Shown here piece by piece: positions 34,006 through 60,422 of a stretch of 60,422 nucleotides of DNA. The stretch spans positions 1 through 60,422 of the IMG/VR virus record IMGVR_UViG_3300032047_000013. One strand, 5' to 3'. The notes below the pieces were generated by a model that was not told where the DNA came from, made no database searches, and was given only the letters and a program-made list of their open reading frames with translations. A program made the translations under genes and the position numbers. The DNA comes from a virus. Lineage: Duplodnaviria > Caudoviricetes. Positions within the stretch are counted from its first letter, which is position 1; each line of letters opens with the position of its first letter.

Positions 34006-34006
34006 A

Positions 34007-40024: not shown

Positions 40025-40053
40025 TTTGGGTGTTTTGGGTGAGTTGCTTTGTG

Positions 40054-40061
40054 CAAATATA
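40054..40061 (-). promoter_or_regulatory. -7 element TATATTTG
   Basis: Intergenic, upstream of ATG 40024. Confidence 0.7.
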
Positions 40062-40065
40062 ACAA

Positions 40066-41118: not shown

Positions 41119-41119
41119 G

Positions 41120-42694: not shown

Positions 42695-43043
42695 CCTCTA
42701 TGGTTATGAATTCTGAACATCCAATCAGATCTTCAGCAGCCACAGAGATGTCAGAACACTTTGAGAGGTCAATGGTTTCAAGAGACACGTCAACATCAGT
42801 GTCCAAAAGCTCATCAAGTTCTTTCTGGAAGGCCTGGGTCTTCTCTTTTGCTTCTTTAGAATCTGAGTCCTTTATAGCGTTTAACTCGTTTGCTCTTTTT
42901 TCCCTCTCTTTGTAGAAATTGTCTACCACTACGATTAGACTAGAAACGTTTTTGGCGATCCCGAAGCTAACGGCCAGAGGCATTTTGTTTTTAGACAAAG
43001 AAACTAGGCTCTTGTGAGCCTGGAGGCAATTTAATACTTTCAT
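42675..43043 (-). CDS. small helical protein, possibly a fibre-assembly chaperone (DUF1617-like)
   Basis: L..LS..KMPL.VSF.IAKN..L..E..ELLD.DVDV pattern. Confidence 0.5.
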   Translation of the reverse strand: MKVLNCLQAHKSLVSLSKNKMPLAVSFGIAKNVSSLIVVVDNFYKEREKRANELNAIKDSDSKEAKEKTQAFQKELDELLDTDVDVSLETIDLSKCSDISVAAEDLIGCSEFITIEDANKDG

Positions 43044-43061
43044 TTAATTGTTTTTGTTACA

Positions 43062-43069
43062 CAAATATA
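43062..43069 (-). promoter_or_regulatory. -7 element TATATTTG
   Basis: Intergenic, upstream of ATG 43043. Confidence 0.7.
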
Positions 43070-44560: not shown

Positions 44561-44578
44561 TTTGTTCTTTTTTAATGT

Positions 44579-46525: not shown

Positions 46526-46526
46526 A

Positions 46527-47615
46527 TCAAGTTGTCTTTAGTCTTATCTTTAAGCTGGATCCCTCTTTGAGAGAGCCCTTTTGAGTGCTTTGGTGCAAAT
46601 ATACATCATAAGAAACTGACCCAAAGACGACAGTATAGAGCTGATTGTTGCTATCGAAAGAGAAGGATCGGTCAGAAACTCCAGCGTCAGCAGTCACCTC
46701 AGCTATAGAGTCTATTCTTAGGGCAGCAGGTATGGCTATGTAGGTGTAGTTGTCAGGAGACTCTGTAAAAGAGCTTCCCTTTAGAAATATCTCATGGCCA
46801 GAGTACTCTTCGGAGTCTGGAACATCAAAAGAAACAGAGTTGGTATATGCTTGATTTGCTAAGGAAGGGTCGGCAGTCAAAGAAGAAGGCAGGTAGGACA
46901 GATAAGCCGCCCTGCCGTAATACAACATGTCCGAATAATCATAGCCGTTAAGACCATTGAAAAATCTAATTACCTTCTTAGAGCCATGCTCCGTAACGGC
47001 TGAGTGAGAAGAACCGTTCATTTCATAATAAACCTTTCTTCCTCCAACTCCAGCCGCAGAACCAGCAGATCCTATCTGACCTCCATCGACAGAAACAGAA
47101 AGAGAGCTATTCGTCGCAGCCCATGGCCTATGCACATCAGCAAAGACGCTGCTAATCGGGAACCCTCGACCTATGGGTATTTTATATCCAGGGTTCAATC
47201 CATAAGACCAGGAAGGCAATACCTCTTTTATAGAAGCATTAGAGGGGGAGAGGATATCCCTTAGGGCCGACTCAATAGTCTCTGGACTAGAGTAAGACTC
47301 CCCAACTGCATCTCCAAGAGCTGGAGAAAAGTTAGTGACGTCAAGGTCCGAAGAAAAAACGCCCCCAGCAACAATGGTTGTAGCGTCTACGTATGTATAT
47401 GTGTTTGTCTGTAAATCATATACTATAATGCTGCCGTCAGAAGGATCACCGCTAACCAACTCTCCAAGACCCACAGCACCAGAGTTGGTGTTTATTTCAA
47501 TAATATCTGGAGTCTCACTTTGAACAGATATAGATCCAGGGAGAACAGAGGGGGTTATGCTTACTGCTACTCCCTCATCAATGGATACTACTATAGAATC
47601 TGGACAAGACATCAA
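46527..47615 (-). CDS. putative fibre/appendage protein
   Basis: DGSIIVYD..TNTY; ESALRDIL resembles EIIRDAL in the neighbouring protein. Confidence 0.5.
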   Translation of the reverse strand: MMSCPDSIVVSIDEGVAVSITPSVLPGSISVQSETPDIIEINTNSGAVGLGELVSGDPSDGSIIVYDLQTNTYTYVDATTIVAGGVFSSDLDVTNFSPALGDAVGESYSSPETIESALRDILSPSNASIKEVLPSWSYGLNPGYKIPIGRGFPISSVFADVHRPWAATNSSLSVSVDGGQIGSAGSAAGVGGRKVYYEMNGSSHSAVTEHGSKKVIRFFNGLNGYDYSDMLYYGRAAYLSYLPSSLTADPSLANQAYTNSVSFDVPDSEEYSGHEIFLKGSSFTESPDNYTYIAIPAALRIDSIAEVTADAGVSDRSFSFDSNNQLYTVVFGSVSYDVYLHQSTQKGSLKEGSSLKIRLKTT

Positions 47616-48100
47616 ACAGACGTTGATGAAGAAACAGTAACGTCTTCATTGAATGTTATTCTTCCTGTAAGCCAGGTTGTAACAACTGGCTCTTCTCCTT
47701 CCGAAGGAACAGTTTCTGCCTGTATGTCATAAAAGTAGGTCCCAGAAAGGATGTTGGCCATGGCTCTCCTGTCGGCAGTAAAAGAAACGTTACCGTTAGA
47801 TCCATCACTTTGATCAACAGTAATAGCTCCCGTCGTATTGTTTACAACATTAGCCCCCGTGCCAAACGTAGTTACAGACGCAGTGGGATCCATATCTGTT
47901 GAAAGGATGGCTGTATTTAGTCCATCATCAAAGGCGTCCTCTCTAACCTGCATGTAAAACAAGTAATTTGCAGCTTGAACTTGCTTTGGGGTCGAGTTTG
48001 AGTTCTTGAACGTAAGGCTAAGCTTAAAGGTATCACCTCGCCTAGCCGTAATATCCAGCCTCTGTGCAACATCAAGATTTACTTTGTTCGTGGTGGCCAT
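47612..48100 (-). CDS. fibre adaptor-like (BppU-N/LtfC-type Ig fold) protein
   Basis: LDITARRGDTFKLSLTF..MQVR..G.YFYDIQ..TWL.GRI..EDVT. Confidence 0.65.
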   Translation of the reverse strand: MATTNKVNLDVAQRLDITARRGDTFKLSLTFKNSNSTPKQVQAANYLFYMQVREDAFDDGLNTAILSTDMDPTASVTTFGTGANVVNNTTGAITVDQSDGSNGNVSFTADRRAMANILSGTYFYDIQAETVPSEGEEPVVTTWLTGRITFNEDVTVSSSTSV

Positions 48101-48114
48101 TGTAGTTGTGTTGT

Positions 48115-50553
48115 TTATGATCTAGTGATTTTAACATTGCTCATCTCCTCTGGAAGCTCACCTCTACTTCCCTGCCTTTGTGACACAAGCTTACTTTGCT
48201 CTACAGCCTGCTGCTTGACCCTATCGTCCTTCCTGTCTTCCTTAAGCACCTCTAGCTTCTCCTTGAACTCCTGCTCCTCAGTCCTGAATCCAAGAGTAGC
48301 CTGAGCCTTAATCATCTCTATCTCTTTCCGTAGAGCGTGAAGCGCCTGAGCAACCTGTATCTCTGACTGAGCCTTAGCCTGGATTTTTTGCATCTCAAAC
48401 TGAGCCTCCATCTGAAGCTTCTGGGCCTCTACCTGGGCAGAAACCTGTTGTTGCTGCATAGCCATCTCTTGCTGCTGCTGAGCCATTTGCTGCTGCTCCT
48501 GCATGGCCTGTTGCTTTCTCTTCTTTCTCCTCACCATCAAAAGACGCTCGGCCTGATCAACATCCTTAAGGTCCCTAATAACCATAGCGTCCTCAAGGTC
48601 TATCTCCTTCTGACCAAGAGAGATTTGAATCATCTGCTCAAGATCCATCTTCTCCTTGTTGCCCATCTCCTTGACCACCTTGACTCCGAAGTTGTACATA
48701 GAAAGGTCTTCGAATGATGAAAGAACCTCCATGTTCTTCTTACCTATGGCGTTAGCATAGGCCTCGTAGATAGCGCTACCCTGGGGTATTATCTGCAGAC
48801 ACTTTACGACGTCCTCGCACACTCTCTTGTAAAGGAGCATGGATGCGTCAGTTACATCATGGATGGCGTTGTTGCTGGCCTGTATAGCCTGCTCCCTAAC
48901 CCCCACCAAGGCCTCACTATTTGGAGAACTTGCATCGGTAACCTCGTTGATACCAGTAGTGTCTCTAATGAGTCTTAGGTAGTGATTGTATATACCGATA
49001 AGCTCATTTATGTTCCTGATGCTGTTTCCGATCTCTCGAATAGGGGGGTTCTGGAAGCCGCCATCGGGGTTTTTGCTTCTGTAGTAGAAAACACCAGTCT
49101 GCTCGTAGATGTCATGAAGATCAAGAGGCTCAAGCTCCCCGCCCTTGCCCAGCTGAACATTCTCTAGCCCCTCTATGTCAATGATCAAACCGTCAGGCTT
49201 GGCCTTGGCTATAGCCTGCTGAATCTTAAGGTGCGTGAGCTGAAGCATATCAGCAAAGCCTAAGCAGCTGCCAACCAGCGACTTAGGCATCATGTCTTGA
49301 AGGTTTGATGCAGACACAGAGTAAGACATTCTAGCCCTTGAGATGTCATGGGCATTCTTTGGAATGTTCTTCTTTTTCCCGTAGTTAAACAGGAAGCCAC
49401 AACCTAGAACGTAGCTACCACCATACACAGTGGTGACGTCCATCTTTACGGGCTTTCTGTCAAAGACACTTCCTGGGCGCTGCTTGTAGGAGCTGCCCTT
49501 AAAGTAAAATCCAGTATTGCCAAACCTACTCTCCTTTTCTTCAAAGAAGATGCAGTCAACGGTAAGGAACTCAAACTCAAGGACATCAACGAGATAGTCG
49601 TCATACCCATAGGCCATGGTGCCAGACATCTCATTTCTTACACGGCGATTCATTCTCGATGAGTCATTACCGTACTTCCCAGCGAACTTGCTAGCAATCT
49701 TCTGATACTGATCCTCGCTGAGATCATCTCCAGCTATTCTTTTTAGCTCATGGATCGCAATCTTCTTAACGTGCCCACCATAAACAACATCAGAGAAGTT
49801 GGGGTCCTCGGTATGGCTATGGACAAAGTTCAAGGGGTCAACATAGTCAACCTTAATGCCATAGTTAGGATCGTTGCTTCTTTTGGTTACAGCCATGCCA
49901 CAAGTGACAAGGTCTTGGACGCATCTGCGGAACGTGGTATCATTGAACTCGTTCCACTCCATCGTCATGTTGGTAGCAACCTGAGCCGCTATCTCTGCAT
50001 CAGTCTTGATGTTGGTCCCCATAAAGATCTCTGCCTCCTCAAGGGTATCAGGTATCTCACCCACATCCCTAGTCACTATCATACCCGTCTTCTGCTGAAG
50101 CTGAGCAAGCTGAGCCTTAGCAGCAACCTCTGCCTCGACCTTCTTTTTTTCAACGTCCTTATAGGAAGAAGAAAGGGGGTCTATGGCCTCGACGTTAGGA
50201 TGAGGGGACTTGGACAATATGTTATTGGCGACTATCCTCACAAACTTCGGGAGGATGGGCACTGGGGTAAAGTCAAGGTTTAGAAGCGTTCCGTCATTTC
50301 CGTTAGGATCCAGCGACGTAAGTAGTTTCTTGTAGATAGAAACATCTTGTGTGCCGTTGGCGTACTTCCTGTTTTTGTTGAATACGTCGTATCGCTTCTT
50401 GAAAACAGAACTACTGTCGTTAACGCTCCCCCATTGAGACTCAATGGCCTTGGCGTAGCTCAAACCATACTCTCTAGACTCCTTCTCCTCAGCGGGGGCC
50501 AGGGGGTTTGGAAAGCTCTTCCCGTCTTTTGGCTTATTGCTGAAATTATACAT
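48115..50553 (-). CDS. portal protein
   Basis: 812 aa next to TerL; YANGTQ, LNLDFTPVPILPKFV, IQQAIAKAKPDG, TGINE, Gln-rich C-terminal helix. Confidence 0.88.
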   Translation of the reverse strand: MYNFSNKPKDGKSFPNPLAPAEEKESREYGLSYAKAIESQWGSVNDSSSVFKKRYDVFNKNRKYANGTQDVSIYKKLLTSLDPNGNDGTLLNLDFTPVPILPKFVRIVANNILSKSPHPNVEAIDPLSSSYKDVEKKKVEAEVAAKAQLAQLQQKTGMIVTRDVGEIPDTLEEAEIFMGTNIKTDAEIAAQVATNMTMEWNEFNDTTFRRCVQDLVTCGMAVTKRSNDPNYGIKVDYVDPLNFVHSHTEDPNFSDVVYGGHVKKIAIHELKRIAGDDLSEDQYQKIASKFAGKYGNDSSRMNRRVRNEMSGTMAYGYDDYLVDVLEFEFLTVDCIFFEEKESRFGNTGFYFKGSSYKQRPGSVFDRKPVKMDVTTVYGGSYVLGCGFLFNYGKKKNIPKNAHDISRARMSYSVSASNLQDMMPKSLVGSCLGFADMLQLTHLKIQQAIAKAKPDGLIIDIEGLENVQLGKGGELEPLDLHDIYEQTGVFYYRSKNPDGGFQNPPIREIGNSIRNINELIGIYNHYLRLIRDTTGINEVTDASSPNSEALVGVREQAIQASNNAIHDVTDASMLLYKRVCEDVVKCLQIIPQGSAIYEAYANAIGKKNMEVLSSFEDLSMYNFGVKVVKEMGNKEKMDLEQMIQISLGQKEIDLEDAMVIRDLKDVDQAERLLMVRRKKRKQQAMQEQQQMAQQQQEMAMQQQQVSAQVEAQKLQMEAQFEMQKIQAKAQSEIQVAQALHALRKEIEMIKAQATLGFRTEEQEFKEKLEVLKEDRKDDRVKQQAVEQSKLVSQRQGSRGELPEEMSNVKITRS

Positions 50554-50577
50554 TCTGGGGGTAGGTCATCATTTGTG

Positions 50578-50585
50578 CAAATATA
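50578..50585 (-). promoter_or_regulatory. -7 element TATATTTG
   Basis: Between terL and portal. Confidence 0.7.
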
Positions 50586-50603
50586 GTAAATGCGGCGGTG
50601 ACG

Positions 50604-52721
50604 TTAGATTTCGTACCTCCTGAAGAATTTCTTATCTACAAAGTTCGAAACTTCTCTTTTCTTTTTGACTTTCTGAGCAGCCAATAGACACAACCCCGAA
50701 CTTATACTTAGGTCAAACTTTGTTCTGTTATCTATCTTAAATCCAATCCAATCCTCAAGGGTTCTGTCAAAATACATGTTCCCAATAGAACCAGTGTCGT
50801 AGTTAAGACCAACATGATCATGGATGTAAGCTTCAATGGCGTGGGCGTGAGCCTGTATTATATCCTGAGAGTTAGAAGGAATGCCTTTGGTCTTGGACTT
50901 CATCCCGCTGTTAACAGCCAGCAAGTGGCGTGGACGATCCATTAAGTATCCGTCGTAACCTCTTGATTCAAAGTATCTTGCGATACCGTACTTATTGTTT
51001 TCAATTAACAAGGGGTAGCCGTAAAACACAGATGCCATAAGACAATCTTCGTAGAAGATCTTAGCTAAAGGCGGACGGGACGCATACTCAAGCACAAACA
51101 TGTTCGATGGATGCTCCATGTGGAACTTGTTGTACAGGTGCAGCGCACCCTTAGACCCCCGTCCATCGACGGTGGCGTCAAGGTCGTAAGAGTCAACCCC
51201 GCCTACCCCCAGCTCTGCATTAGGTGCAACGCGCTTATTCTTATTGAACTTCTTCAGGTTTCTTAACTCATTGGGAGGCATCCAGGAAATACGGAATCTA
51301 CCGTTGACATCAGGAGAGAAAACCACCTCAGTGTCCTGCTCCCCGCCCTTCCAGTGAAAGTTGCCTATGACGACAGGGTTGGGGAATAGCTCCTCGTTAT
51401 GCTGTACCTGTTCGTATATTTTGCCGATATTAAAAAGGCTACCATCTATACTATCCCTAAATGCCTCATCCTCTGTAAAGGGAAACTGACGGGTTATCTC
51501 ATTAAGCTCAGAAGCATCGTTCTTGAGAGCCTCTCTCTCATTTTTGAGATAGGTTCTGGCTCCTATAGTTACTTCTTCGCCGTCGAGACCGTCAACAGGT
51601 TCGGGAGGGTTCTTTACTATGGGGTTGCCATAAAGATCAAAGAATCCCTCAAGCGAGTCGTAGGCAGGGATAAATAAACGATACAGCCCAGACCTAGTCC
51701 TCCCATTCGCGTTCCTCTCTGTAGGATTCGAGTCCCTCCATAGATCCTTGTACTCTTTTCCTCCCTTGTCCATGGGGTTTACGGTGCTTCCCACCATTGC
51801 CTTTCCCACGATTTTTCGCCCTACGATCAAACACGTCCGTTGAATCCTCCAGGCGTCCCTTATGTCTGTTGGTCTTTCCCATTTTCCAGCCTCGTCTAAA
51901 TAAAGTATATGGAGCTTCTCTCCATCATAAGCGTTGTTTGTTGTGTTCTTCCAGTTTATCACAGTGTTCAGGGCCTCTCCAGTCTGGGAGGTCTTGTTGT
52001 TCTTCGTGATTCTTTTACTGGGTTCTCTAAAAGCAAGCTCCATCCGAGGGTTGGTGGTACCGTCCTGAATAGGCTTGAAGAAGAAGGGGTAGTGCCTGAA
52101 CATGTACACCACCTTCTTCATGAAGATGTTCTCCTGCGCGTCTTTACCAGTCTTAGACTGGATACCAAGGAGTTTGTCTTTGACCTGAGTGGCCTCATCA
52201 ACCAAAACGGCGGAACAGATATTCGTATATCCACTCCGCCGACACTTGGTGTACAGCTGCCCTATGCAGCGTGGGTCCGCCTCACACGCAGCCAAATGTA
52301 AGAAAATTTCTCTTTGGAAAGAAAGGAAGCTGGGGTGACCCACATCCATCCTCGTCCACTGAAGCATCATGTAGTGGCGCCCCGTAATATATGTAGGCTC
52401 ACCGTTATTATAAAACCAAAAGCCCTCACGCCTACGGCGAAACTCCTCCTCGATATACGGAGAAAACTTTTGTCGAAACTCCCGTGGCATCTCCCCCCAC
52501 TCATCCATAGACTTAATCCTAGACAGCTCCTCTGGCATAGAAATCCTCTCCCACAGCTGCATGTGGTCTGGACGTCCATGTCCTGCAATTTCTTTTTTGG
52601 GAGGCTGAGCGGGAAGTGCAATGAGTAGCCCACCGAGTTCAATACTTTCACCTTTCGAACCGTTGGGGCAAATTGAGACAGCAGGGTCTTCATATCCTTC
52701 TATGTTTATTAGAACGCTCAA
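50604..52721 (-). CDS. terL: terminase large subunit
   Basis: Walker A KCRRSGYT, Walker B LYLDEAGKW, GSTVN, RQFP, GGVDSYD, LIENN, KFDLSISSG; TTG start. Confidence 0.92.
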   Translation of the reverse strand: MSVLINIEGYEDPAVSICPNGSKGESIELGGLLIALPAQPPKKEIAGHGRPDHMQLWERISMPEELSRIKSMDEWGEMPREFRQKFSPYIEEEFRRRREGFWFYNNGEPTYITGRHYMMLQWTRMDVGHPSFLSFQREIFLHLAACEADPRCIGQLYTKCRRSGYTNICSAVLVDEATQVKDKLLGIQSKTGKDAQENIFMKKVVYMFRHYPFFFKPIQDGTTNPRMELAFREPSKRITKNNKTSQTGEALNTVINWKNTTNNAYDGEKLHILYLDEAGKWERPTDIRDAWRIQRTCLIVGRKIVGKAMVGSTVNPMDKGGKEYKDLWRDSNPTERNANGRTRSGLYRLFIPAYDSLEGFFDLYGNPIVKNPPEPVDGLDGEEVTIGARTYLKNEREALKNDASELNEITRQFPFTEDEAFRDSIDGSLFNIGKIYEQVQHNEELFPNPVVIGNFHWKGGEQDTEVVFSPDVNGRFRISWMPPNELRNLKKFNKNKRVAPNAELGVGGVDSYDLDATVDGRGSKGALHLYNKFHMEHPSNMFVLEYASRPPLAKIFYEDCLMASVFYGYPLLIENNKYGIARYFESRGYDGYLMDRPRHLLAVNSGMKSKTKGIPSNSQDIIQAHAHAIEAYIHDHVGLNYDTGSIGNMYFDRTLEDWIGFKIDNRTKFDLSISSGLCLLAAQKVKKKREVSNFVDKKFFRRYEI

Positions 52722-52864
52722 AAGTAAGGTTGATTGGAAAGAAACTCTAGCCAGTCTAACACAGTGACTATTCCGTCTCCGTCATAATCGTAAAGCTTGT
52801 TGTCCGTTCCGAAGGAGTTGTAAAACCCTGCTACCTCCTGCATAAAGTCGAGAAAGTCCTGCAT
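52718..52864 (-). CDS. 48-aa protein with an EF-hand/dockerin-like loop (not in ORF track)
   Basis: MQDFLDFMQEVAGFYNSFGTDNKLYDYDGDGIVTVLDWLEFLSNQPYF*; coupled to both neighbours. Confidence 0.65.
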   Translation of the reverse strand: MQDFLDFMQEVAGFYNSFGTDNKLYDYDGDGIVTVLDWLEFLSNQPYF

Positions 52865-53046
52865 TAGAATACCTGACCCCACCTGTTGCTTCTGAAGCTA
52901 GGGGCTCCTGTTTTAGGGTTTTTGATATCCATGTGCTTACCGCATGGACACTGTATCTGATGCTGAGCCTTGTCGTCAACAAACCTGATGGTAACACCAG
53001 TCTTATCCTCTTCGTGATCTCCGCACTCGCAAATGTAAGTAGCCAT
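52864..53046 (-). CDS. FmdB-like zinc-ribbon protein
   Basis: MATYICECG..CPCG..M..APSF. Confidence 0.7.
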   Translation of the reverse strand: MATYICECGDHEEDKTGVTIRFVDDKAQHQIQCPCGKHMDIKNPKTGAPSFRSNRWGQVF

Positions 53047-53048
53047 GA

Positions 53049-53180
53049 TTATCGACCTTGTGAAGCATAAGGCTTCTTGTAGTTAACTGAACCCTTACTC
53101 TTGGATGTCTTGGTCTTTGCGTGGACACCCTTCCTGCGAATACGCTTCTTCTTGTATTCTGAAATCTGAACTTTAGCCAT
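53049..53180 (-). CDS. 43-aa basic protein (not in ORF track)
   Basis: MAKVQISEYKKKRIRRKGVHAKTKTSKSKGSVNYKKPYASQGR*. Confidence 0.7.
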   Translation of the reverse strand: MAKVQISEYKKKRIRRKGVHAKTKTSKSKGSVNYKKPYASQGR

Positions 53181-53199
53181 TCCTTTTAATTAAATTTCG

Positions 53200-53273
53200 T
53201 ACACCCGCAGGGACTCGAACCCCGAACCGTCGCCTTAGAAGGGCGATGCTCTATCCAGTTGAGCTACAGGTGC
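53200..53273 (-). tRNA. tRNA-Arg(UCU)
   Basis: Cloverleaf GCACCTG/CGGGTGT, anticodon arm TCGCC-CTTCTAA-GGCGA, T-loop TTCGAGT; CCA not encoded. Confidence 0.92.
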
Positions 53274-53278
53274 ATGTG

Positions 53279-53506
53279 TTACCTGCTTCTTCTTTTTTGC
53301 GGCCTGTTGTTGGCCCTGTTCTTAGATTCTGACTGAGGTGAGGTCTTATCAGACGTACCTACATGCGCTTCATCGAGACCATCACCGTTCCCGTATGTAC
53401 CCTTACGGCGGTTGATTTTGTTCAGAGAAGCCCTGTACTTCTTGGCTTTTCCGCCCTTTCCGTACTTAGCATACTCTTTCTGGTAGTCTCTTTTCTTGAG
53501 CTTCAT
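53279..53506 (-). CDS. small basic protein, degenerate HNH-like
   Basis: RDYQKEY..RA..N..G.GDGLDEAH..SKNR pattern. Confidence 0.6.
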   Translation of the reverse strand: MKLKKRDYQKEYAKYGKGGKAKKYRASLNKINRRKGTYGNGDGLDEAHVGTSDKTSPQSESKNRANNRPQKRRSR

Positions 53507-53510
53507 GGTA

Positions 53511-53518
53511 CAAATATA
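53511..53518 (-). promoter_or_regulatory. -7 element TATATTTG (probably leaderless)
   Basis: 4 nt before ATG 53506. Confidence 0.7.
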
Positions 53519-53526
53519 ATAAATTG

Positions 53527-53600
53527 TTGGGGCGGCGGGACTTGAACCCGCGACTTCCTGTGTATAAGACAGACGCTCTAACCAACTGAACTACGCCCCA
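53527..53600 (-). tRNA. tRNA with UAU anticodon (Ile, reads AUA)
   Basis: TGGGGCG/CGCCCCA acceptor, D-arm GTTC/GAGC, anticodon arm TCTGT-CTTATAC-ACAGG, T-arm GCGGG-TTCAAGT-CCCGC. Confidence 0.88.
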
Positions 53601-53731
53601 GTTGATAAGCCCTTTATGCGTAGAAGGCCGTCTGACGAAAACCAACAACTCAGTCTTCTTTGTCTTCGTTCCAGGAATCCTCCCAGAACTTATAATCTGT
53701 TTTATTGTGTTGCCATACTATTTTCTTCCAA

Positions 53732-54022
53732 TCACTTAGAGAATCTTTCAGCGAAACCTCCGCTGTAGTCTTTTGCTTGTTCAATCCCTCCACTTGTTTG
53801 TAGATCTTTAATCATTTGCTCTAGTCGCTGTCTTTCAACGATGAGTTCTTTGCAATCCGTAGCTGTCTGTTTGATCGACTGCAGCTCAGCTTTTCTGGCG
53901 CTCCCGTTGATCTCAGGATCAACTGGCTTTTTGATCTCATCAATCATATTATCTATGGCAGCTTCCATTGATGACATGAGCCTCTTGGCTGCGCTTACGG
54001 TATCAAACTTCTTCTTCGACAT
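53732..54022 (-). CDS. putative terminase small subunit
   Basis: Helical protein ending GGFAERFSK, upstream of terL; start placed at ATG 54022. Confidence 0.5.
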   Translation of the reverse strand: MSKKKFDTVSAAKRLMSSMEAAIDNMIDEIKKPVDPEINGSARKAELQSIKQTATDCKELIVERQRLEQMIKDLQTSGGIEQAKDYSGGFAERFSK

Positions 54023-54593
54023 ACATAAGGTCTTCACATCGAACCCTGTAGTAGACTACATCGTCGATAGTTATCTTGTATTGCATCTTATCTCTAAAGA
54101 CAACGGTGTCTCCAGCGTACACGTCCATCTCCTTAAGCCAGGGGGCGTCAAAACCAATGGTCCCCCTAGTAGTGGACTTGTCTTCAAGAGACACAACCTC
54201 AATAAGATCAGAAGAGACTTCCTCTTCAACAAACTCAGGTTTAATAAGGGTCCAACCAGCGAGGGTATATATGTGTCCACTTTTTGAACTCTTATATCCA
54301 ATGGCTTGATTGTTGATCGTGTGATCTGGGTCAAACCTAACCACGTAGTGGTTTTCGTGCCCAGTCAGCACCTGCCCTTCGTTCATGACTACCAGGTGGT
54401 GGAAGTACAGGGTGTCGCCCTCCTCTACTCCAGTGTCGTGCTTAAAAGGAGCGCATACGACTGGGCCTTCGGTAACCCTCCACTCGAACTCATTGAACTT
54501 AGAGTCGAGGTACAGCTTGGCGCCGTTGTTAAGCGTAATCTCGTCGTTAACTGGTTTCTCCAGCTCTACGACAAATAAATCAAGAGTCTTCAT
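54003..54593 (-). CDS. groES: GroES-like co-chaperonin with tandem domains
   Basis: Two GroES-like units: G.VV..P....VEEGDTLYF and G.I......GDTVVF..Y.I.IDD..YYRV. Confidence 0.65.
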   Translation of the reverse strand: MKTLDLFVVELEKPVNDEITLNNGAKLYLDSKFNEFEWRVTEGPVVCAPFKHDTGVEEGDTLYFHHLVVMNEGQVLTGHENHYVVRFDPDHTINNQAIGYKSSKSGHIYTLAGWTLIKPEFVEEEVSSDLIEVVSLEDKSTTRGTIGFDAPWLKEMDVYAGDTVVFRDKMQYKITIDDVVYYRVRCEDLMYVEEEV

Positions 54594-54735
54594 TGTTGTA
54601 CGGGAACTTTTTGTTCAAGTACTCTTTTCTTTCCTGACATCCGCAGTCCTTGGAGTACTTCTCCACGAGCTGCTTAATGCCTGTAGCTTTGGTAAGCTTC
54701 TCTACAGTGTCGCCAAGGCCCTTGCTTTTAGACAT
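54580..54735 (-). CDS. 51-aa conserved-type phage protein with CGC motif (not in ORF track)
   Basis: MSKSKGLGDTVEKLTKATGIKQLVEKYSKDCGCQERKEYLNKKFPY. Confidence 0.7.
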   Translation of the reverse strand: MSKSKGLGDTVEKLTKATGIKQLVEKYSKDCGCQERKEYLNKKFPYNNEDS

Positions 54736-54971
54736 CAGAAATTCAAATCGTATTCAATTATACATGGCATATCATCTACAGACTTCCAGAGTACCTGACC
54801 CTCATCTGTTTGGATATAAACAAAGTAACGATTTTTTCCGTAACGATGCAAGTGTTTTCCATCTAATTCTATGGTAGACACTTTGCCGTTTCCAGCCTTC
54901 ATGCCCACGTAGTAAGCCATGGCATCTTTGGGGTCTCTGCCAATGACAATCTTCCTAATAAGTCCCTCCAT
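54735..54971 (-). CDS. conserved hypothetical protein
   Basis: LIRKIVIGRDPKDAMAYYVG..WK..MP.IIEYDLNF. Confidence 0.7.
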   Translation of the reverse strand: MEGLIRKIVIGRDPKDAMAYYVGMKAGNGKVSTIELDGKHLHRYGKNRYFVYIQTDEGQVLWKSVDDMPCIIEYDLNF

Positions 54972-55276
54972 TAGTTTAGTGAAATACCGAGGTCTCCAAG
55001 CATGCCATCCAAATCAGGGCCGCTTTGATCCTCGTATGTGTTCTTTATAAATTCATTCATAATCTCCATCTCGGTATATGACTCCAAGTTGTAGCTGAAT
55101 ATAGCTTTCATGGTGCTGTTGTCGTCGTCGAAAGGAGTCAATACCCCAGTGACCACAACTGAAAGCACCTTCTCTCTCATACCATACCTCTCGATCAGCA
55201 TGTCCATCTTGTGATGGAGCTCCTGCATTTCAATCAAGAAGTCGTATTCCTCTGTATCTTTGTTCTCCATCATCAA
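54971..55276 (-). CDS. hypothetical acidic protein
   Basis: ORF track; TAATG coupling. Confidence 0.6.
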   Translation of the reverse strand: MMMENKDTEEYDFLIEMQELHHKMDMLIERYGMREKVLSVVVTGVLTPFDDDNSTMKAIFSYNLESYTEMEIMNEFIKNTYEDQSGPDLDGMLGDLGISLN

Positions 55277-55284
55277 TTCATTTC

Positions 55285-55704
55285 ATGCCCAAGAGTAGAG
55301 TCGGTAAAAACAAACTCTTTAGGGAGTTTTCCAAGCTTAATCAAAGGTACGTAAAAAACAACTACCTCAAGAGGCTTAGGGTTGTCAGCAGAGACTTCTG
55401 CAAGAAGAATGATATCTTCGAGAAAGAGCTCATGTTTATGCTGTGGGCTTACGACCTAGAGTTCTGGACGCTAAGGTACGCAGCAAAAGATTACGAGTAC
55501 TCAGAAAAGAAGCTATCGGAACGCATTGTGTATGAGCTAGTTAACAACGGTTACATCTACAAACACTTTGACAAGCTTACACCGTCTGACACATACGAAG
55601 ATCACCTCTTTAGAGAGGAAACGAAATACAACTTTAGGGTGAGATACGCCCTTACTCAAAAGGCAAGGCTTCTCGTACAGCGCTTTTACAGCGAGTTTAA
55701 TTGA
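55285..55704 (+). CDS. putative winged-HTH DNA-binding regulator
   Basis: ELMFMLW..ELVNNGYI..YALTQKAR.LV (MarR-like wing); own TATCTTTG promoter at 55255-55262. Confidence 0.6.
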   Translation: MPKSRVGKNKLFREFSKLNQRYVKNNYLKRLRVVSRDFCKKNDIFEKELMFMLWAYDLEFWTLRYAAKDYEYSEKKLSERIVYELVNNGYIYKHFDKLTPSDTYEDHLFREETKYNFRVRYALTQKARLLVQRFYSEFN

Positions 55705-55796
55705 TCGAGAGCCATCTGGCCAAGCTCTTGAGCGTTTTCAAGGCCAGAGTTGGCTTCCATCCAAGCCTCTACGGATGCTATTTGAAGTTCAATCAT
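55686..55796 (-). CDS. 36-aa peptide (not in ORF track)
   Basis: MIELQIASVEAWMEANSGLENAQELGQMALDQLNSL*; TAATG-coupled. Confidence 0.45.
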   Translation of the reverse strand: MIELQIASVEAWMEANSGLENAQELGQMALDQLNSL

Positions 55797-56242
55797 TAGG
55801 AAAGAAGATGACTTGTTCTGACGCCCTTAGAGCAGTAGGCGCCTTCAATAGTATATACGAATTCAAGTTCGATAGTATCTCCTTGAGATGGGTTTGTAAC
55901 ACCCATTGCGGTTAACGTGGTGTTGCTTGACAATAAAATAATATTACCTATAACAACTAAAAGAGTCAGCTCGAAATTAAATCTTTCTTTTTTCTTTGTG
56001 GTGACATTTCTGAACATACCGCTCAAAATAATACCAGAGGGCTGGAATGCGACCTGGGAGGAAAGAAGGCTTGTATCAGAAAGTGTGACGGCAACAGACG
56101 GAGCTATTGTATAAATGTCGTTTGAAGAGGATATAGACACGGCTGGTACGCCATAAGCCTCTATAGTATCGAGCCCCTCAGTAAAGGACTTTCCGTGGCC
56201 GTTATTTATTGATAGAGATGGCATATCAGAGTCCTTTACCAA
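55796..56242 (-). CDS. hypothetical beta-rich protein
   Basis: ORF track; the true start may be MPSLS at 56224. Confidence 0.55.
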   Translation of the reverse strand: MVKDSDMPSLSINNGHGKSFTEGLDTIEAYGVPAVSISSSNDIYTIAPSVAVTLSDTSLLSSQVAFQPSGIILSGMFRNVTTKKKERFNFELTLLVVIGNIILLSSNTTLTAMGVTNPSQGDTIELEFVYTIEGAYCSKGVRTSHLLS

Positions 56243-56705
56243 ATATCACTTCGTAGTAAGTCTTTCCCTCATCATCACGACAAGCCTTGAGACAGCGACC
56301 ACGATTAACGCCATCATGAACATAAGAGACGTGAACCCAATCAGGATTGTCTTCATCACCAAACTCCCAAATGAGCTGATCAAACGTAAGGTTATTGAGT
56401 ATATACTGGAAGATTTCAGCATTCGTACACTTTCCGTATACGTCTGCATCAAGGTCCAATGCTCTTCCCTCCACATGCTGACTACGAGTTGAGCCCCCGA
56501 TCGCAACATTGAGCTCAGCCGAACGATACCCGCTCGAAACGAATATAGGGCACTTGAAAGCACTCCTAAGAGGTTGAAATACGTGTTCTGCAACCGCCTT
56601 GAGATTTCCTTGTACCCAATCATCTGGAGTGTTATCTATATTAAGGCGCTTAGCCGTGATGCTTTTGGTCACCTCGGCGAGTGACAGATTTTTTGATAGC
56701 TTCAT
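56226..56705 (-). CDS. peptidase M15A (probable endolysin)
   Basis: LSKNLSLAE, SSGYRS, SQHVEGRALD, FDQLIWEF, WVHVSY. Confidence 0.88.
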   Translation of the reverse strand: MKLSKNLSLAEVTKSITAKRLNIDNTPDDWVQGNLKAVAEHVFQPLRSAFKCPIFVSSGYRSAELNVAIGGSTRSQHVEGRALDLDADVYGKCTNAEIFQYILNNLTFDQLIWEFGDEDNPDWVHVSYVHDGVNRGRCLKACRDDEGKTYYEVIFGKGL

Positions 56706-56777
56706 TCTTAAGCCTTATTTTTTCATTTTCTACAACAGGGTCCTTTCGCTTGCGCTTGGGATTGAAGTAGAATTTTT

Positions 56778-56993
56778 TCACTTAGTACCAGTAAGCTTCC
56801 TATACTGATCAACAAGAGGCTTAGCAGCAGGTGTACCCTTGGCCTTCTTAATCTTGGCCTCTAGGCCTTTCTTCATTGCCTCTTTTCTAGGGTCATACTT
56901 ACCGCCCTTCTCCATGTAGCCCATCTTGTTACGGACGGCTGTAGGTAGCTTCTTCAGCCCCTTCTGGTCTGCAGTTGCTTTCTTGAGTTTCAT
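56778..56993 (-). CDS. small basic protein
   Basis: KGLKKLPTAVRNKMGYMEKGG motif. Confidence 0.7.
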   Translation of the reverse strand: MKLKKATADQKGLKKLPTAVRNKMGYMEKGGKYDPRKEAMKKGLEAKIKKAKGTPAAKPLVDQYRKLTGTK

Positions 56994-58060
56994 GAGTAGC
57001 GATCTCTCTTCTTATCAAGATTTGCTTTTCTCTTCTCCATTTTATCCTGCTGCTTTCCGTATCGCTTTACAATTCTTGCAGCTCTCTTCTTACCGATAGC
57101 TTTTGTCGTCTCCCTGTCATAGGAGGTAGCGCCTCTTTTCTTATTTTTTCTATCAGAGAAACCGATCTTCTTCTTTGTGATCGTGCCTTCACCAGCATCC
57201 ACCTCTTTTGTGCGCATGCGCTTGTAAGTGTTGCTATCGCCCTTGCCGCTCATCTTAGTCTTCATAGCAACTTTTCTGGTATCCGTAGACGGCCTCAAGG
57301 TTCGCTCATTGTTTGAGTAACCTGGGAGCATGTCTCTTCTATCCAGGGTCTCAATAGTCTTGGACCTACGCTTTGTGCTCTTGTTAGACATCTTGTAATT
57401 TTCAGCCCGACTCTTTCTGCCGCCATCTCTGAAAGACTCAGCTTTTTCTGCCTTCTTTCGCTTGATAGCGTCAGTGACCTTCTTCTCAAGTCGGTTCTTA
57501 ACGGCGCCTGCCTTGTTGTTGGCTTTTCTAATAGCAGCCTTAACCTTCTTCAAGGGACCTTTGCGGCCACCGTCTTCGTATTTACCTCCGTTTTTCATTC
57601 TACCTTTTGTTGCAAATTTATCCATGGCGGAAGACCTTCTGTCTTTCCTCTCCAGGGCACTCATTGATTTCTTATATATATCCTGTGAAGATTCTTTCTC
57701 CTTGGACTCTCCAGAAGATTGTTGTTCTTGTTCTTTGGAGCGAGCCTCCATGTTCTTCTTCATCTCCCCAACCTTATCCTTGAAGTTGGTTCTGCGCTCA
57801 TCGCGCTTAAGAAGCCTGTCCGTCTTGCTCTGTTGCTTAAGCTTATTCTTAGAAGCCTTTAGGTTCTCCTTGGAACCAACATTGTTGAAGCCTTTGGTCA
57901 TCAACTGCTTGGGGCCTCCTGCAGCCTTTGCAGCTTTAGCTCCCTTAGCAGCAGATCCTGCAGCCTTCATAGACTTAGCAGCCTTAAGTGCCTTAGCAGC
58001 TTTAAGTGCTTTTGCGGCTTTAAGTGCTTTTGCGGCTCCGAGTACTAGTGGTAATGGCAT
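56990..58060 (-). CDS. very basic histone-H1-like protein
   Basis: (AAKALK)3 N-terminal repeats; Lys/Arg-rich throughout. Confidence 0.7.
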   Translation of the reverse strand: MPLPLVLGAAKALKAAKALKAAKALKAAKSMKAAGSAAKGAKAAKAAGGPKQLMTKGFNNVGSKENLKASKNKLKQQSKTDRLLKRDERRTNFKDKVGEMKKNMEARSKEQEQQSSGESKEKESSQDIYKKSMSALERKDRRSSAMDKFATKGRMKNGGKYEDGGRKGPLKKVKAAIRKANNKAGAVKNRLEKKVTDAIKRKKAEKAESFRDGGRKSRAENYKMSNKSTKRRSKTIETLDRRDMLPGYSNNERTLRPSTDTRKVAMKTKMSGKGDSNTYKRMRTKEVDAGEGTITKKKIGFSDRKNKKRGATSYDRETTKAIGKKRAARIVKRYGKQQDKMEKRKANLDKKRDRYS

Positions 58061-58064
58061 GGGG

Positions 58065-58072
58065 CAAATATA
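58065..58072 (-). promoter_or_regulatory. -7 element TATATTTG (probably leaderless)
   Basis: 4 nt before ATG 58060. Confidence 0.7.
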
Positions 58073-58084
58073 ACACTAATCAAA

Positions 58085-58549
58085 TTAGTACTTCGTCTTC
58101 CTTAGCTTCATAAAACCACCCTTGGCATAAAGGCCTGCAGCACTAGCAGCCGTCTTGATCAAACCCGACTTTATAAACCCAGTACCCCTCTGATCGAGTA
58201 TACCATCAACCAAAGATCTAGTGTCAAGGTCGTAGTTGTCTCTCAACCCCTGCACAGTATCCTTTATCTCCCCAAGATTACCCATAGCATTTTTGATGCC
58301 ACCAGAAACATCTCCTTTGTCTTCAGGAGCCATCCTCTGAACCAAGTCAAGAAGGCCTTTCATCTCATCATCGGACATACCCTTGAGCTTGTCAAAATTA
58401 AGCCCAGGGAGATCTGTCAAACCCTTCAACTCCCGACCCGACATCTTCTGTGCCCGCTCAAGGAACTCAGATCTAGCGTCTGCACCCTTCTTGGCAGGGT
58501 CGCCTGGGCTGTTCAATGCCCCTCCAGCTTCGTACTTACGTAGTTTCAT
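58085..58549 (-). CDS. hypothetical protein bounded by YxxGG motifs
   Basis: MKLRKYEAGG...LYAKGGFMKLRKTKY; start placed at ATG 58549. Confidence 0.65.
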   Translation of the reverse strand: MKLRKYEAGGALNSPGDPAKKGADARSEFLERAQKMSGRELKGLTDLPGLNFDKLKGMSDDEMKGLLDLVQRMAPEDKGDVSGGIKNAMGNLGEIKDTVQGLRDNYDLDTRSLVDGILDQRGTGFIKSGLIKTAASAAGLYAKGGFMKLRKTKY

Positions 58550-59282
58550 GCTTATATACAACTATTCTCGCGCCATAAAAGAAAAGGACTCCTCTGTGTA
58601 CACACAAAAATCATTTTTGGATGCTTAATCACGTCTGAATCGCTTAGATGCCGTAAAGGTATAAAGGAAAATCTTAAAAGTCAATAGTGAACGAACGGTT
58701 TAAGCAAGGACTCATAATACACTACTAATCAAAGGGTTAGGTAGCAGCCACATAGGTTTTGTTTGTAAGTCATGAATACCGATTAGAGCGAATTTTCGCC
58801 TCTGAAGGCAATGATCCGAAAAAATGCGGTAGAAATGTATAGGGTGGGGATTATATATATACACAGGCGAGGACCACTGAATCCGAAACGGATTCAAAAT
58901 AGCCTCAAACCCTCCCTTTAGGGAGGTTTTGGCATACTTTTCAGCTTTCTGCCAACTGACTGTAAGTCAGTTCTTTGCACCTTCTTACATGAAGCTTCGC
59001 TTTCAGCGGGAGAATCGAGGCAGCAGCTCCGAAACACCGAACAATCCCAACCCTATTCTACGAATAGACTGATTACCACCCCTTTAGGGGGTGATACAGA
59101 ACCGATTTTGGGACTGGCTCAACACTTCGTGTTGGGCATAGGAAACCGAAACTCAAAACCGATTGGCAGAGCGGTGTGTAACGCCGTAGTGTACGTAGTC
59201 AACTTGTTGACTTCCTGTGACTACCGAGGTTTGGCTTCAACCATTACTCTACCTTGTAGAGGAATGAAGTTGGGAAGATATA

Positions 59283-59338
59283 GAGTTGTAGTATAAGAGA
59301 GAAGAAGTCTTATGACTTCTCTCTTATACTACTAACTC
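59283..59338. other. long imperfect hairpin
   Basis: GAGTTGTAGTATAAGAGAGAAGAAGTC-TTAT-GACTTCTCTCTTATACTACTAACTC. Confidence 0.8.
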
Positions 59339-59395
59339 CTAAAGGGTTTGAGAAGTCGTCCTTTAGGAAGTCAAACTTCATTTAATTCATTTCCA

Positions 59396-59917
59396 ATGAA
59401 TAACTTCAATTTCTCCGACTGCCGTAAGGCAGTAAACCAAGCTTCTTTCCGTCCAACAAAGAGCCGAAAGGCTCTTGCTTCAAAGCTTCTTGCAGAAGCT
59501 TTAGAGTTCGTCGCCAACCTCGAAGAGGTTGCTGACAAGCCTTCGAAGAAGGCTAAGAAGACTCGACGTAAGTCGAGGAAGAAAGCAACTCCAACCCAGA
59601 GGGTTGCTGACAGTCAAGAAAAAGCCTTTCATGGAAAGGCTGACAGTCCAGTCAAGCCTTCGAAGAAGGCTAAGACAGCTTCCGTTAAGGAAGCTAAAGC
59701 ATCTCTGAAAGAGATGGATGAGAAGAAAGCCGTCAAGAAGACAGCGAAGCTGAAGGCCAAGCAAGTGGCTTCAGGGGTCAACGAAGTTGACAGAGTAGCT
59801 TCCTTGGAAGCTAAAATCGAGGCTCTCACCGCAGTGCTCGCTGTGCACATGGAGTCTACGACTCTGGCTTCTCCTTCTAACGAAGTTAGCCTTGACGAAG
59901 TTCCTTTCACCCTTTAA
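59396..59917 (+). CDS. Lys/Ala-rich early protein
   Basis: ATG at 59396 after an AT-rich leader; KPSKKAK occurs twice; ends DEVPFTL. Confidence 0.7.
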   Translation: MNNFNFSDCRKAVNQASFRPTKSRKALASKLLAEALEFVANLEEVADKPSKKAKKTRRKSRKKATPTQRVADSQEKAFHGKADSPVKPSKKAKTASVKEAKASLKEMDEKKAVKKTAKLKAKQVASGVNEVDRVASLEAKIEALTAVLAVHMESTTLASPSNEVSLDEVPFTL

Positions 59918-59927
59918 TCCATCGAAG

Positions 59928-60008
59928 ATGATTAACTTAATCCTTTCCTTTGCACTGGCATGCGCTGTCTTGTACTTTGAGTACAAGCTGTTGCTCCGCT
60001 ACCTCTGA
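59928..60008 (+). CDS. 26-aa hydrophobic peptide (not in ORF track)
   Basis: MINLILSFALACAVLYFEYKLLLRYL*. Confidence 0.45.
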   Translation: MINLILSFALACAVLYFEYKLLLRYL

Positions 60009-60015
60009 CCCTTTA

Positions 60016-60075
60016 GAGAGTTACGTGTATATACTCTCTGAACAGAGTGAAGAGAGTATATACACTTAACCTCTC
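60016..60075. other. long hairpin with a 15-bp perfect core
   Basis: GTGTATATACTCTCT (60025-60039) / AGAGAGTATATACAC (60051-60065), extended by GAGAGTTA/TAACCTCTC. Confidence 0.8.
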
Positions 60076-60105
60076 AATAACAAACTTCAATTAAACCCTT
60101 TCCTT

Positions 60106-60246
60106 ATGGACAAGAACCTACGCCGTCAGCTGATTGCTGACCTCCTGACATCCTCTATGGACTTCGAACTTGTGACCTGCACTGATGTGTGGGACGAGCT
60201 GACCTGCGATGAGCAGATGACCTTGGAAGACTTGATTGACTGCTGA
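60106..60246 (+). CDS. 46-aa acidic early protein (not in ORF track)
   Basis: MDKNLRRQLIADLLTSSMDFELVTCTDVWDELTCDEQMTLEDLIDC*, preceded by the CAAACTTCAATT leader. Confidence 0.65.
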   Translation: MDKNLRRQLIADLLTSSMDFELVTCTDVWDELTCDEQMTLEDLIDC

Positions 60247-60251
60247 AAGCA

Positions 60252-60309
60252 GTACAGGTACTCTGATGAGCCTTGTATAGGCGAAACACCCCCTTGGGGT
60301 GTCAGTATC
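60252..60309 (+). ncRNA. type I hammerhead ribozyme
   Basis: Stem I GGTACT/AGTATC; core CTGATGA (60263-69); stem II GCCT/AGGC; GAAA (60283-86); stem III CACCCC/GGGGTG; GTC cleavage triplet (60301-03). Confidence 0.9.
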
Positions 60310-60328
60310 AAACTTCAATTCATCTACG

Positions 60329-60422
60329 ATGACAAAACTTCAAGAACTATATTTCACCCTGCAAGGGTGGGACGGGTTCAGCGTCAAACACGACCTGAAC
60401 GAGTACGGAGGCGGAGGCTACG
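60329..60422 (+). CDS. 5' part of an early gene (truncated by the window)
   Basis: MTKLQELYFTLQGWDGFSVKHDLNEYGGGGY..., directly after the ribozyme and leader motif. Confidence 0.6.
   Translation, partial: MTKLQELYFTLQGWDGFSVKHDLNEYGGGGY

Follow-up and report, generated by a model that had tools for sequence, protein, structure and literature searches.

A conserved hairpin array, probably a DNA-level element, overlaps the first early genes of an uncultured virus of the Caudoviricetes

The early gene at 59396-59917 and its hairpins

Record IMGVR_UViG_3300032047_000013 of IMG/VR is a 60,422-nucleotide (nt) sequence from a virus of the Caudoviricetes (Duplodnaviria), which we analyzed over its whole length and refer to as the window. 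Its genes form two divergent sets: the structural, late module lies on the - strand and runs from 58561 down to 8724, and the + strand genes begin at 59396, pass the end of the record and resume at position 1 to about 8072. Since the + strand genes begin there, we take the open reading frame (ORF) at 59396-59917, which encodes a Lys/Ala-rich protein of 173 amino acids (aa), to be the first gene of the early/replication module, in which a PDDEXK exonuclease and a BT4734-like primase fused to a DnaB-type (DnaB_C) helicase are also encoded. A first-pass annotation of the sequence had proposed that this gene doubles as a chain of 16 hairpins, and here we examine that chain, its relatives and what it may do.

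When we scanned for perfect stems of at least 6 base pairs (bp) with loops of 3-6 nt, we found 13 hairpins within the ORF (stems 6-9 bp, loops 3-5 nt), and a separate inverted-repeat finder agreed. An inverted repeat is present at all 16 of the proposed positions, with two stems of 5 bp and one of 4 bp making up the remainder, and the exact 23-nt duplicate claimed in the first-pass annotation is there as well, at 59536 and 59653 (Table 1). The 4-bp stem contains the only + strand copy of GCGAAGC in the window, a heptamer that passages of PMC13037366 give as the canonical sequence of an extraordinarily stable DNA mini-hairpin.

The hairpins far outnumber those in randomized sequences. Permuting synonymous codons, with the protein and codon usage kept, gave a mean of 1.62 hairpins and a maximum of 7, permuting all codons gave a mean of 0.56 and a maximum of 4, uniform synonymous recoding gave a mean of 0.83, and mononucleotide shuffling gave a mean of 0.40; in none of these four tests did any of 1000 sequences reach 13. 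The chain thus survives the synonymous randomization that had been named as its critical check, with shuffles never giving a similar number, and chance is excluded as the source of the excess. Since synonymous permutation still yields threefold the hairpins of codon permutation, the order of the amino acids itself appears to be palindrome-friendly. Across the whole window there are 107 hairpins compared to 52 +/- 7 in shuffles, and the bin at 59-60 kb holds 21, when all other 1-kb bins hold 0-5. Fold energies gave z-scores of -6.9 to -8.5, whichever strand was folded and whether RNA or DNA parameters were used. We rejected a composition artefact, because the codon permutation that keeps composition gives only 0.56 hairpins and 0 occur in the window's other Lys/Ala-rich gene, and an assembly artefact, because the hairpins occur in 35 independent viral contigs.

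We also asked how the 173-aa ORF fares as a gene in its own right. A protein-collection search returned 698 homologues with E <= 0.01 among 1233 candidates, a count of protein clusters at that threshold, and the best 120 of the 698 are 67-98% identical, many of them from marine surveys. A scan of IMG/VR added 35 loci at 38-98% identity, and the frame is open in all 30 loci that could be traced to a stop codon. Of 325 pairs, 220 lay within 0.05 < dS < 2, and their pairwise dN/dS (ratio of nonsynonymous to synonymous substitution rates) had a median of 0.32, which indicates purifying selection, as the comparison suggested in the first-pass annotation had asked. On the strength of the homologues, the open frame in the complete loci and this median, sequence comparison identifies the ORF as a real protein-coding gene, and the earlier suggestion that it may be secondary to a structural array loses its footing on the same three grounds.

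The protein itself resembles little that is catalogued. Its conserved blocks are FSDCRKAVNQATFRPT, a KRRRK tract, TPQQRVADRQEKAFHGKADSPVKPSKKAKTASV, the heptad-like VASLEAKIEALTAVLAVHMES and a C-terminal NEVSxDELPF. An AlphaFold2 model from a 35-row alignment predicts five helices separated by low-confidence basic linkers, without a compact fold (predicted local distance difference test score, pLDDT, 75; predicted template modeling score, pTM, 0.27), and the basic linkers are predicted to be disordered. Pfam and PHROG gave no family for the protein, and its 35 homologues gave only scattered matches there at E >= 0.0098. A profile search of PDB gave a best match of E = 0.58, ESM Atlas offered no usable lead, and there was no match to a linker-histone, Hc1 or other DNA-binding family.

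Table 1. Features of the window and of one related locus (window coordinates unless stated otherwise)
Feature	Position	Strand	Remarks
Window	1..60,422		complete or nearly complete viral record; CheckV completeness 98%; without end repeats
Divergent intergenic region	58562..59395		834 nt, between the first - strand (late) and first + strand (early) gene; conserved blocks and hairpins
Block GGTGGGGATTATATAT	58843-58860		in the divergent intergenic region; includes columns invariant in 15/15 aligned relatives
Hairpin-dense zone	58878..60369		~1.5 kb; reaches from the divergent intergenic region across the 173-aa gene into the small early genes that follow
Long imperfect hairpin	59283..59336		just upstream of the 173-aa gene; 17-bp perfect outer stem; kept in relatives with other stem sequences
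Start-codon hairpin ATTCATT-tcc-AATGAAT	59385..59401	+	start codon in the 3' arm
173-aa early gene	59396..59917	+	first gene of the + strand module; 13 perfect hairpins of at least 6 bp, two of 5 bp, one GCGAAGC
Perfect hairpins (13)	59418, 59459, 59482, 59515, 59538, 59562, 59592, 59623, 59655, 59677, 59700, 59777, 59796		within the 173-aa gene
5-bp stems	59852, 59877		within the 173-aa gene
4-bp stem CAGC-GAA-GCTG	59742		includes GCGAAGC at 59744..59750 (+)
Exact 23-nt duplicate	59536..59558 and 59653..59675	+	first copy encodes KPSKKAK; holds AGCCTTC-gaa-GAAGGCT
Hairpin with 20-nt arms	60020..60070		between early genes; followed by motif CAAACTTCAATT
Hairpin-dense genes of related locus L034	1998-2564 (188-aa gene)		63-aa acidic protein; 188-aa protein; homologue of the 173-aa gene

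Conservation and extent of the hairpins

The excess is shared by the relatives of the gene. Of 33 related loci, not counting the short fragments L037 and L038, 32 have a homologous ORF whose hairpin count exceeds all 200 synonymous permutations, with counts of 5-17 compared to permutation means of 0.8-2.0, the exception being L028, with 4 hairpins and a permutation maximum of 6. In the codon alignment, hairpins share columns and differ in the sequence of their stems; at about window position 59597, for example, relatives carry CAACCC-aga, CAACTC-aga, CAGCAA-cgag, CACCTTC-aca or CAGCTAC-taga. When a 20-sequence DNA alignment was scored with the window's own structure, 76.8% of 1865 cells could pair, compared to 27-43% in controls in which the 3' partner was slid by 1-3 columns, and both sides had changed in 38 of 100 pairs, compared to 14-23 in the slid controls; a structure taken from one aligned sequence is favored in such controls, chiefly for the cells paired, and this affects the excess of double changes less. 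None of 500 column shuffles reached the observed covariation. The check across homologues proposed in the first-pass annotation therefore found compensatory changes above controls and stems that the homologues retain.

These paired changes reach into the protein. Around the conserved C-terminal N-E-V, the hairpin GCTAAC-gaa-GTTAGC encodes A-NEV-S, TCCAAC-gaa-GTTGGA encodes S-NEV-G and GCAAAC-gaa-GTTTGC encodes A-NEV-C, so that the flanking residue pairs match the base-pairing prediction exactly. Where a whole protein segment has been replaced, AFHGKADSP in one case and ALKTNEVGP in the other, each version has a hairpin of its own, AGCCTTTC-atg-GAAAGGCT and GACCAAC-gaa-GTTGGTC, respectively. 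Both the loss of hairpins on synonymous permutation and the paired residue changes in homologues bear out the earlier proposal that codon and even amino-acid choices are dictated by structure. Stems are essentially all-or-none, with only 16 single-defect hairpins on the alignment, 2 of these with the defect in mid-stem. Judged from these alignments, the hairpins are conserved as structures rather than as sequences, and by selection.

High hairpin density also extends outside the 173-aa ORF, from about 58878 to 60369, and this zone holds approximately 35-45 hairpins of unrelated sequence, most of them inside coding sequence. In nearly all related loci the density is high from about -500 to +1250 or +1500 relative to the start of the gene and at background elsewhere; in the window, the two flanking - strand genes, one of them the Lys/Ala-rich 356-aa gene, carry 0. 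The operon of the related locus L034 opens with three genes in a row that have 5, 18 and 13 hairpins, and for each of them 0 of 500 permutations reach the observed number; genes further downstream are at or near background. The second of these, encoding 188 aa, shares only an N-terminal 37-residue motif with the 173-aa protein (49% identity, E = 8e-6). We conclude that the hairpin property attaches to position and not to one gene. The 188-aa gene of L034 lies directly upstream of the homologue and is the most hairpin-dense gene we saw; the motif it shares reads RK..A.KLL.EAL....NLEEV, and its product is acidic afterwards.

Among 50,697 phage records, blastn of 58000-60422 together with tblastn of the protein found no similar DNA in cultured phages. 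Runs from 13 studies of marine and viral metagenomes contain near-identical sequence, and four of these studies are possibly the source sample. The runs were compared as contigs, in which strain-level breaks fall at 58831/58865 and at 60014-60076, and one viral metagenome contig joins 58866 to 59281, representing a variant without 58867-59280 (414 nt, with several hairpins). Such breaks fit the many related contigs that end within approximately 3 kb of the gene. The hairpin zone defines an uncultured marine clade.

Loops, strand polarity and surrounding elements

To distinguish DNA from RNA pairing, we made use of mismatches, with A:C serving as the internal control, since it is G:T on the opposite strand. 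Among the cells under the structure, 78 were G:T and 125 were A:C, compared to 1355 Watson-Crick pairs; of 35 stems with one internal mismatch, 5 had G:T and 7 had A:C; and of 188 pairs immediately outside perfect stems, 17 were G:T (24.6 expected) and 40 were A:C (37.7 expected). In all three counts the stems are strictly Watson-Crick, without the wobble tolerance of structured RNA.

Loop sequences show a strong bias. The 169 distinct intragenic hairpins include 96 triloops, of which 46 were GNA (39 of them GAA) compared to a background of 7.6% for GNA, and 16 were the complement TNC. Of the 59 tetraloops, GNRA made up 13, its complement 0 and CUUG 5, and none of the 169 hairpins had a UNCG loop. 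The closing pair was C:G in 28 of the 46 GNA loops and in 12 of the 13 GNRA loops. The array thus has the loops of the C-GNA-G and C-GNNA-G mini-hairpin classes, in addition to the GCGAAGC at 59744. In the rest of the window (1-58000), just 2 of 16 triloops were GNA or TNC.

The stable loops also have a direction. Within genes, 38 GNA loops lie on the sense strand compared to 13 TNC. Read on the + strand, the interval from -200 to +1199 relative to the gene start contains 76 GNA and 30 TNC, placing the stable loop on the + strand, and the interval from -500 to -201 contains 22 TNC and 6 GNA, placing it on the - strand. The polarity switches near 59100-59200, approximately 250 nt upstream of the gene and inside the divergent intergenic region. 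On each side of the switch the stable loop is on the sense (non-template) strand of the outward transcription unit, and a fork moving away from the switch would have that strand as its lagging-strand template. In all, the hairpins make up a cis element that is set by position, probably acts at the level of DNA and overlaps several early genes.

Several further elements lie around the gene. Hairpins with the start codon in the 3' arm, of the form TTCATY-tNc-RATGAA, recur at 60320-60332, at 1816-1830 and 2669-2685 of L034 and in 8 of 32 homologues at this column; if such a hairpin folded in RNA, the AUG would be sequestered. The motif CAAACTTCAATT has exactly three copies (59372, 60081 and 60309), each ahead of a + strand start codon, and a strong hairpin together with the leader motif CAAACTTCAWTT (three exact copies) precedes each small + strand early gene (59283-59383, 60020-60092 and 60286-60320). 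The conserved block GGTGGGGATTATATAT reads TATAAT-like on the - strand, and its sequence suggests that it may be a promoter or another key control site. Candidate iterons were unconvincing: CCGAAAC occurs 3 times in 58883-59152 and 8 times in the window compared to 5.4 expected, and AACCGATT occurs twice compared to 1.4 expected. The words CCGAAA and ACCGATT lie near the CCGAAAC copies, and the loose ends of other strains show GAAACGGAAACGGAA. Against Rfam 15, the best match scored 25.4 bits with a gathering score of 84, and none of the 8 weak matches, all far below threshold, fell in the ORF.

One related contig, L017, is a perfect foldback, palindromic over 2783 nt on each side without a spacer, and its axis is position 2783 of the locus, or -217 relative to the start of the gene. 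The axis falls on a natural 22-bp palindrome, TAATACTAACT|AGTTAGTATTA, which the relative L024 has at the same place. Two origins come into question for this foldback: a chimera that arose at a hairpin during amplification or assembly, or a replication intermediate. We set aside a protelomerase with hairpin telomeres as its explanation, because other relatives read through the axis and the palindrome at 59283-59336 is imperfect at its center. A different kind of repeat is found in MW202828.1, a freshwater genome, where 43715-45901 (12700-14900 of our locus L040) contains seven identical GTGTCG-ttaa-CGACAC palindromes among the first early genes; these look like operator or promoter-associated repeats rather than a diverse hairpin array.

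The window represents a marine podophage. A large terminase and a portal are encoded (PHROGs), as are two giant virion proteins of 2455 aa and 1863 aa, and the terminase is 40-49% identical to those of podophages of Flavobacterium, Cellulophaga, Tenacibaculum and Maribacter (99 records). From this resemblance, its host is probably a member of the marine Flavobacteriia. Three proteins (5380-7140 and 7137-8072 on the + strand, and 9755-12196 on the - strand) have at their end a sorting domain for type IX secretion (CHU_C or Por_Secre_tail); an M43 metallopeptidase is among the three, and these domains support a Bacteroidota host. Genes for two tRNAs, Arg(TCT) and Ile(TAT), are found at 53199-53273 and 53526-53600 (-), upstream of the terminase gene. 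The second Lys/Ala-rich protein, of 356 aa (56990-58060, -), starts with KALKAA repeats (MPLPLVLGAAKALKAAKALKAAKALKAAK...), has no family match and no hairpins in its gene, and may be an internal or ejection protein. The ORF at 3959-4417 (+) gave a sub-threshold match of 24 bits (cut-off 29.1) to phage endonuclease I, the enzyme that in T7 cleaves junctions and cruciforms; if real, this match would be notable given the cruciform-prone zone in the same genome.

Possible roles of the array

The closest parallels to the array come from DNA hairpins with similar loops. Passages of PMC4496689 on phage N4 state that a C:G closing pair and a loop with 5'G and 3'A allow short hairpins to extrude at physiological superhelicity, and that after extrusion the single-stranded DNA-binding protein (SSB) melts only the hairpin on the other strand. 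The promoters of the N4 virion RNA polymerase, as described in those passages, share with the array a short stem (5-7 bp in N4), a 3-nt loop with 5'G and 3'A, a C:G closing pair and a place at the head of the early region. N4 differs in having three hairpins, non-coding and with conserved sequence from -17 to +1, whose stable form is on the template strand, whereas the array comprises approximately 35-45 unrelated stems, mostly in coding sequence, and has its stable loops on the sense strand. The array thus has N4-type loops (46/96 GNA, 28/46 of these closed by C:G) but neither the template-strand placement nor the conserved sequence. The 2455-aa and 1863-aa proteins showed no sequence match to RNA polymerases in family or PDB searches and no DFDxD motif, so no N4-like or crAss-like virion RNA polymerase was recognized, although a divergent one is possible. 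For the crAss-like phage phi14:2, parts of a preprint report that the virion RNA polymerase transcribes only single-stranded DNA in vitro and that early transcripts have no common upstream motif (bioRxiv 10.1101/2020.03.07.982082).

The same loop classes mark sites where replication is primed. According to passages of PMC13037366, C-GNA-G and C-GNNA-G mini-hairpins occur in the complementary-strand origins of G4, St-1 and alpha3, in ssiA of RSF1010 and in the N4 early promoters, and they are extraordinarily stable, nuclease-resistant and poor substrates for SSB. These single-strand initiation (ssi) signals place mini-hairpins of those classes on the single-stranded template of a primase, as the array may do; the same classes dominate in the array, and the phage studied here encodes its own primase-helicase and has GCGAAGC. 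They differ in that the ssi signals are one to three hairpins in experimentally mapped, non-coding origins, whereas the array is long and overlaps genes.

Other familiar systems share single traits with the array. In phage lambda, the origin lies inside gene O as four near-identical iterons bound by the gene's own product, and in ColE1-type R-loop origins a hairpin primosome site is on the displaced strand; in both respects, a cis replication element that overlaps or directly follows an early transcription unit and a structure on the displaced strand, the array would be similar. Unlike the lambda iterons, its stems all differ save for the one 23-nt duplicate. The promoter-early stem-loop (PeSL) cassettes of T4-type phages resemble the hairpin and leader motif CAAACTTCAWTT found between the small early genes of the window, where strain assemblies also break and swap sequence at hairpins, but PeSLs are intergenic and leave the chain of hairpins within coding sequence unexplained. 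The packaging and operator hairpins of MS2-type single-stranded RNA phages are likewise many, variable in stem and spread over coding sequence, but they belong to RNA genomes and have frequent G:U, whereas the array is in a double-stranded DNA phage and lacks wobble tolerance. Our full-text searches, which covered non-subscription literature, found no description of an intragenic hairpin array in a double-stranded DNA phage.

We infer that the hairpins form in DNA in vivo and are put to use there, and our tentative reading, plausible though short of probable, is that the array, made of sense-strand DNA mini-hairpins, keeps the control region open, which would then serve as an origin or priming zone. 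In the twin-domain model, negative supercoiling is strongest between and behind divergently transcribing polymerases. Negative supercoiling would build up around divergent transcription at this region, or a fork or R-loop would separate the strands, and the mini-hairpins would extrude from the duplex or fold on strand separation. The GNA-capped hairpins of the sense strand would then persist, resisting SSB and reannealing, while the weaker hairpins of the opposite strand would be melted by SSB, so that the zone would be held open and a single-stranded template exposed. The most likely use of such a template would be as the unwinding and priming zone of a replication origin for the phage primase-helicase, with an aid to strand opening in early transcription as a close second. 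Origin use appears the most economical, since the phage has a primase-helicase and no DNA polymerase turned up among the window ORFs scanned.

A number of observations weigh against this reading or against its DNA level. The zone is absent from the two nearest named genomes examined, MW202828.1 and Flavobacterium phage elemoE, and so is no general requirement of this type of phage. GC skew tracks gene orientation and on its own marks no origin. The distinct hairpins counted for loops and polarity are not phylogenetically independent, the purine-rich Lys/Glu coding strand may exaggerate the bias to GAA, whose loops fall almost only in codon frames 0 and 2, and the upstream intergenic part of the window itself lacks the + strand bias, with 20 GNA and 27 TNC. 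Sense polarity fits hairpins in two divergent transcripts equally well. Fold energies do not differ between strands or types of molecule, and GNRA and CUUG are also classic stable loops of RNA; the DNA reading is for these last two reasons favored, not proven.

These points bring us to the main rival, in which the hairpins act in RNA. They would fold in the sense transcripts of the early genes and, across the junction, in a leader that runs leftward, and there they could protect the first mRNAs from RNases, hide transcripts from host defenses (RNA-guided or single-strand-specific ones), block Rho loading or tune translation. Such a role would account for the sense-strand position of the stable loops to either side of the junction, for the 13 GNRA and 5 CUUG among the 59 tetraloops and for the several early-gene start codons in the 3' arm of a small hairpin, and the RNA fold z-score is -6.85. 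RNA-library contigs over 59739-60115 offer a weak hint, given that DNA can be present in such libraries and that the uncovered parts of these contigs carry no meaning. However, G:U is no better tolerated than A:C, unlike in typical structured RNAs, the dominant C-GAA-G triloop is a hallmark of DNA mini-hairpins, UNCG loops are lacking (0/169), and the whole zone would have to be transcribed. We regard an RNA-level role as possible but rather doubtful. It is improbable, on the other hand, that the hairpins are functionless by-products of mutation, left by intrastrand template switching that perfects quasi-palindromes in an often single-stranded zone, such as one beside an origin or a fork barrier. 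The all-or-none stems would fit this, as would the foldback axis of L017 on a natural 22-bp palindrome of the zone, and paired multinucleotide changes of the kind seen here are what template switching makes in coding DNA, according to PMC8604942. Yet approximately 1 hairpin per 30 nt is retained across homologues of 40-95% protein identity, even in replaced segments, loops and closing pairs are biased to the most stable classes, and purifying selection on the genes makes neutral build-up at such density unlikely.

The two remaining explanations look to the gene product and to transcription. The first-pass annotation had suggested that the hairpin DNA could be bound by the basic, H1-like protein that this gene encodes, or that the ORF is merely tolerated in a structural array, and the Lys/Ala-rich composition, the two KPSKKAK, the KRRRK-type tract in homologues and the predicted helices with disordered basic linkers are all compatible with such a protein, for which the lambda origin inside the gene of its binding protein offers a parallel. 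That link to the hairpins found no support, and we consider an autogenous element very improbable: unrelated neighbor genes are equally dense and one of them is acidic in product, the other Lys/Ala-rich gene (56990-58060) is free of hairpins, the differing stems provide no repeated sequence-specific site, and the protein matches no histone or DNA-binding family and is under purifying selection. An antisense insulator, in which - strand hairpins with T-rich tracts would form a stack of intrinsic terminators shielding the late operon from antisense transcription, seems to us most improbable of all. We did find 7 terminator-like sites in 58400-60422 compared to 2.1 +/- 1.4 in shuffles, six of them on the - strand and five of these in the ORF, leaving one of the seven on the + strand as a possible intrinsic terminator on the transcribed strand. 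This excess is trivial, however, being what a purine-rich coding strand with so many hairpins would give anyway; T tracts are missing beside most of the hairpins, whichever strand is read, and an insulator would leave the bias in loop types and the polarity switch unexplained.

If the DNA reading is right, a double-stranded DNA virus overlays a dense structural code on its protein genes, such that residues five codons apart co-vary via base-pairing, and a replication or strand-opening element that is recognized by shape would be invisible to motif-based origin finders. More speculatively, and with more doubt than conviction on our part, the first 1-1.5 kb of the early region in a large and abundant marine clade could be a structure-encoded strand-separation device, a sequence-independent opening element whose 'motif' is foldability. 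In such a device, dozens of DNA mini-hairpins with arbitrary stems would sit in the sense strand to either side of a central switch point, and supercoiling or a passing fork would fold one strand away so that the other is left as naked template. The element may be widespread, given that the family is common in marine metagenomes (698 protein clusters and runs of 13 studies). For annotation, the array is a warning that synonymous-site conservation and odd amino-acid covariation in phage early genes can stem from DNA structure. Altogether, the zone would provide a natural test bed for cruciform extrusion and for mini-hairpins, so far known from a few sites in N4, G4 and RSF1010.

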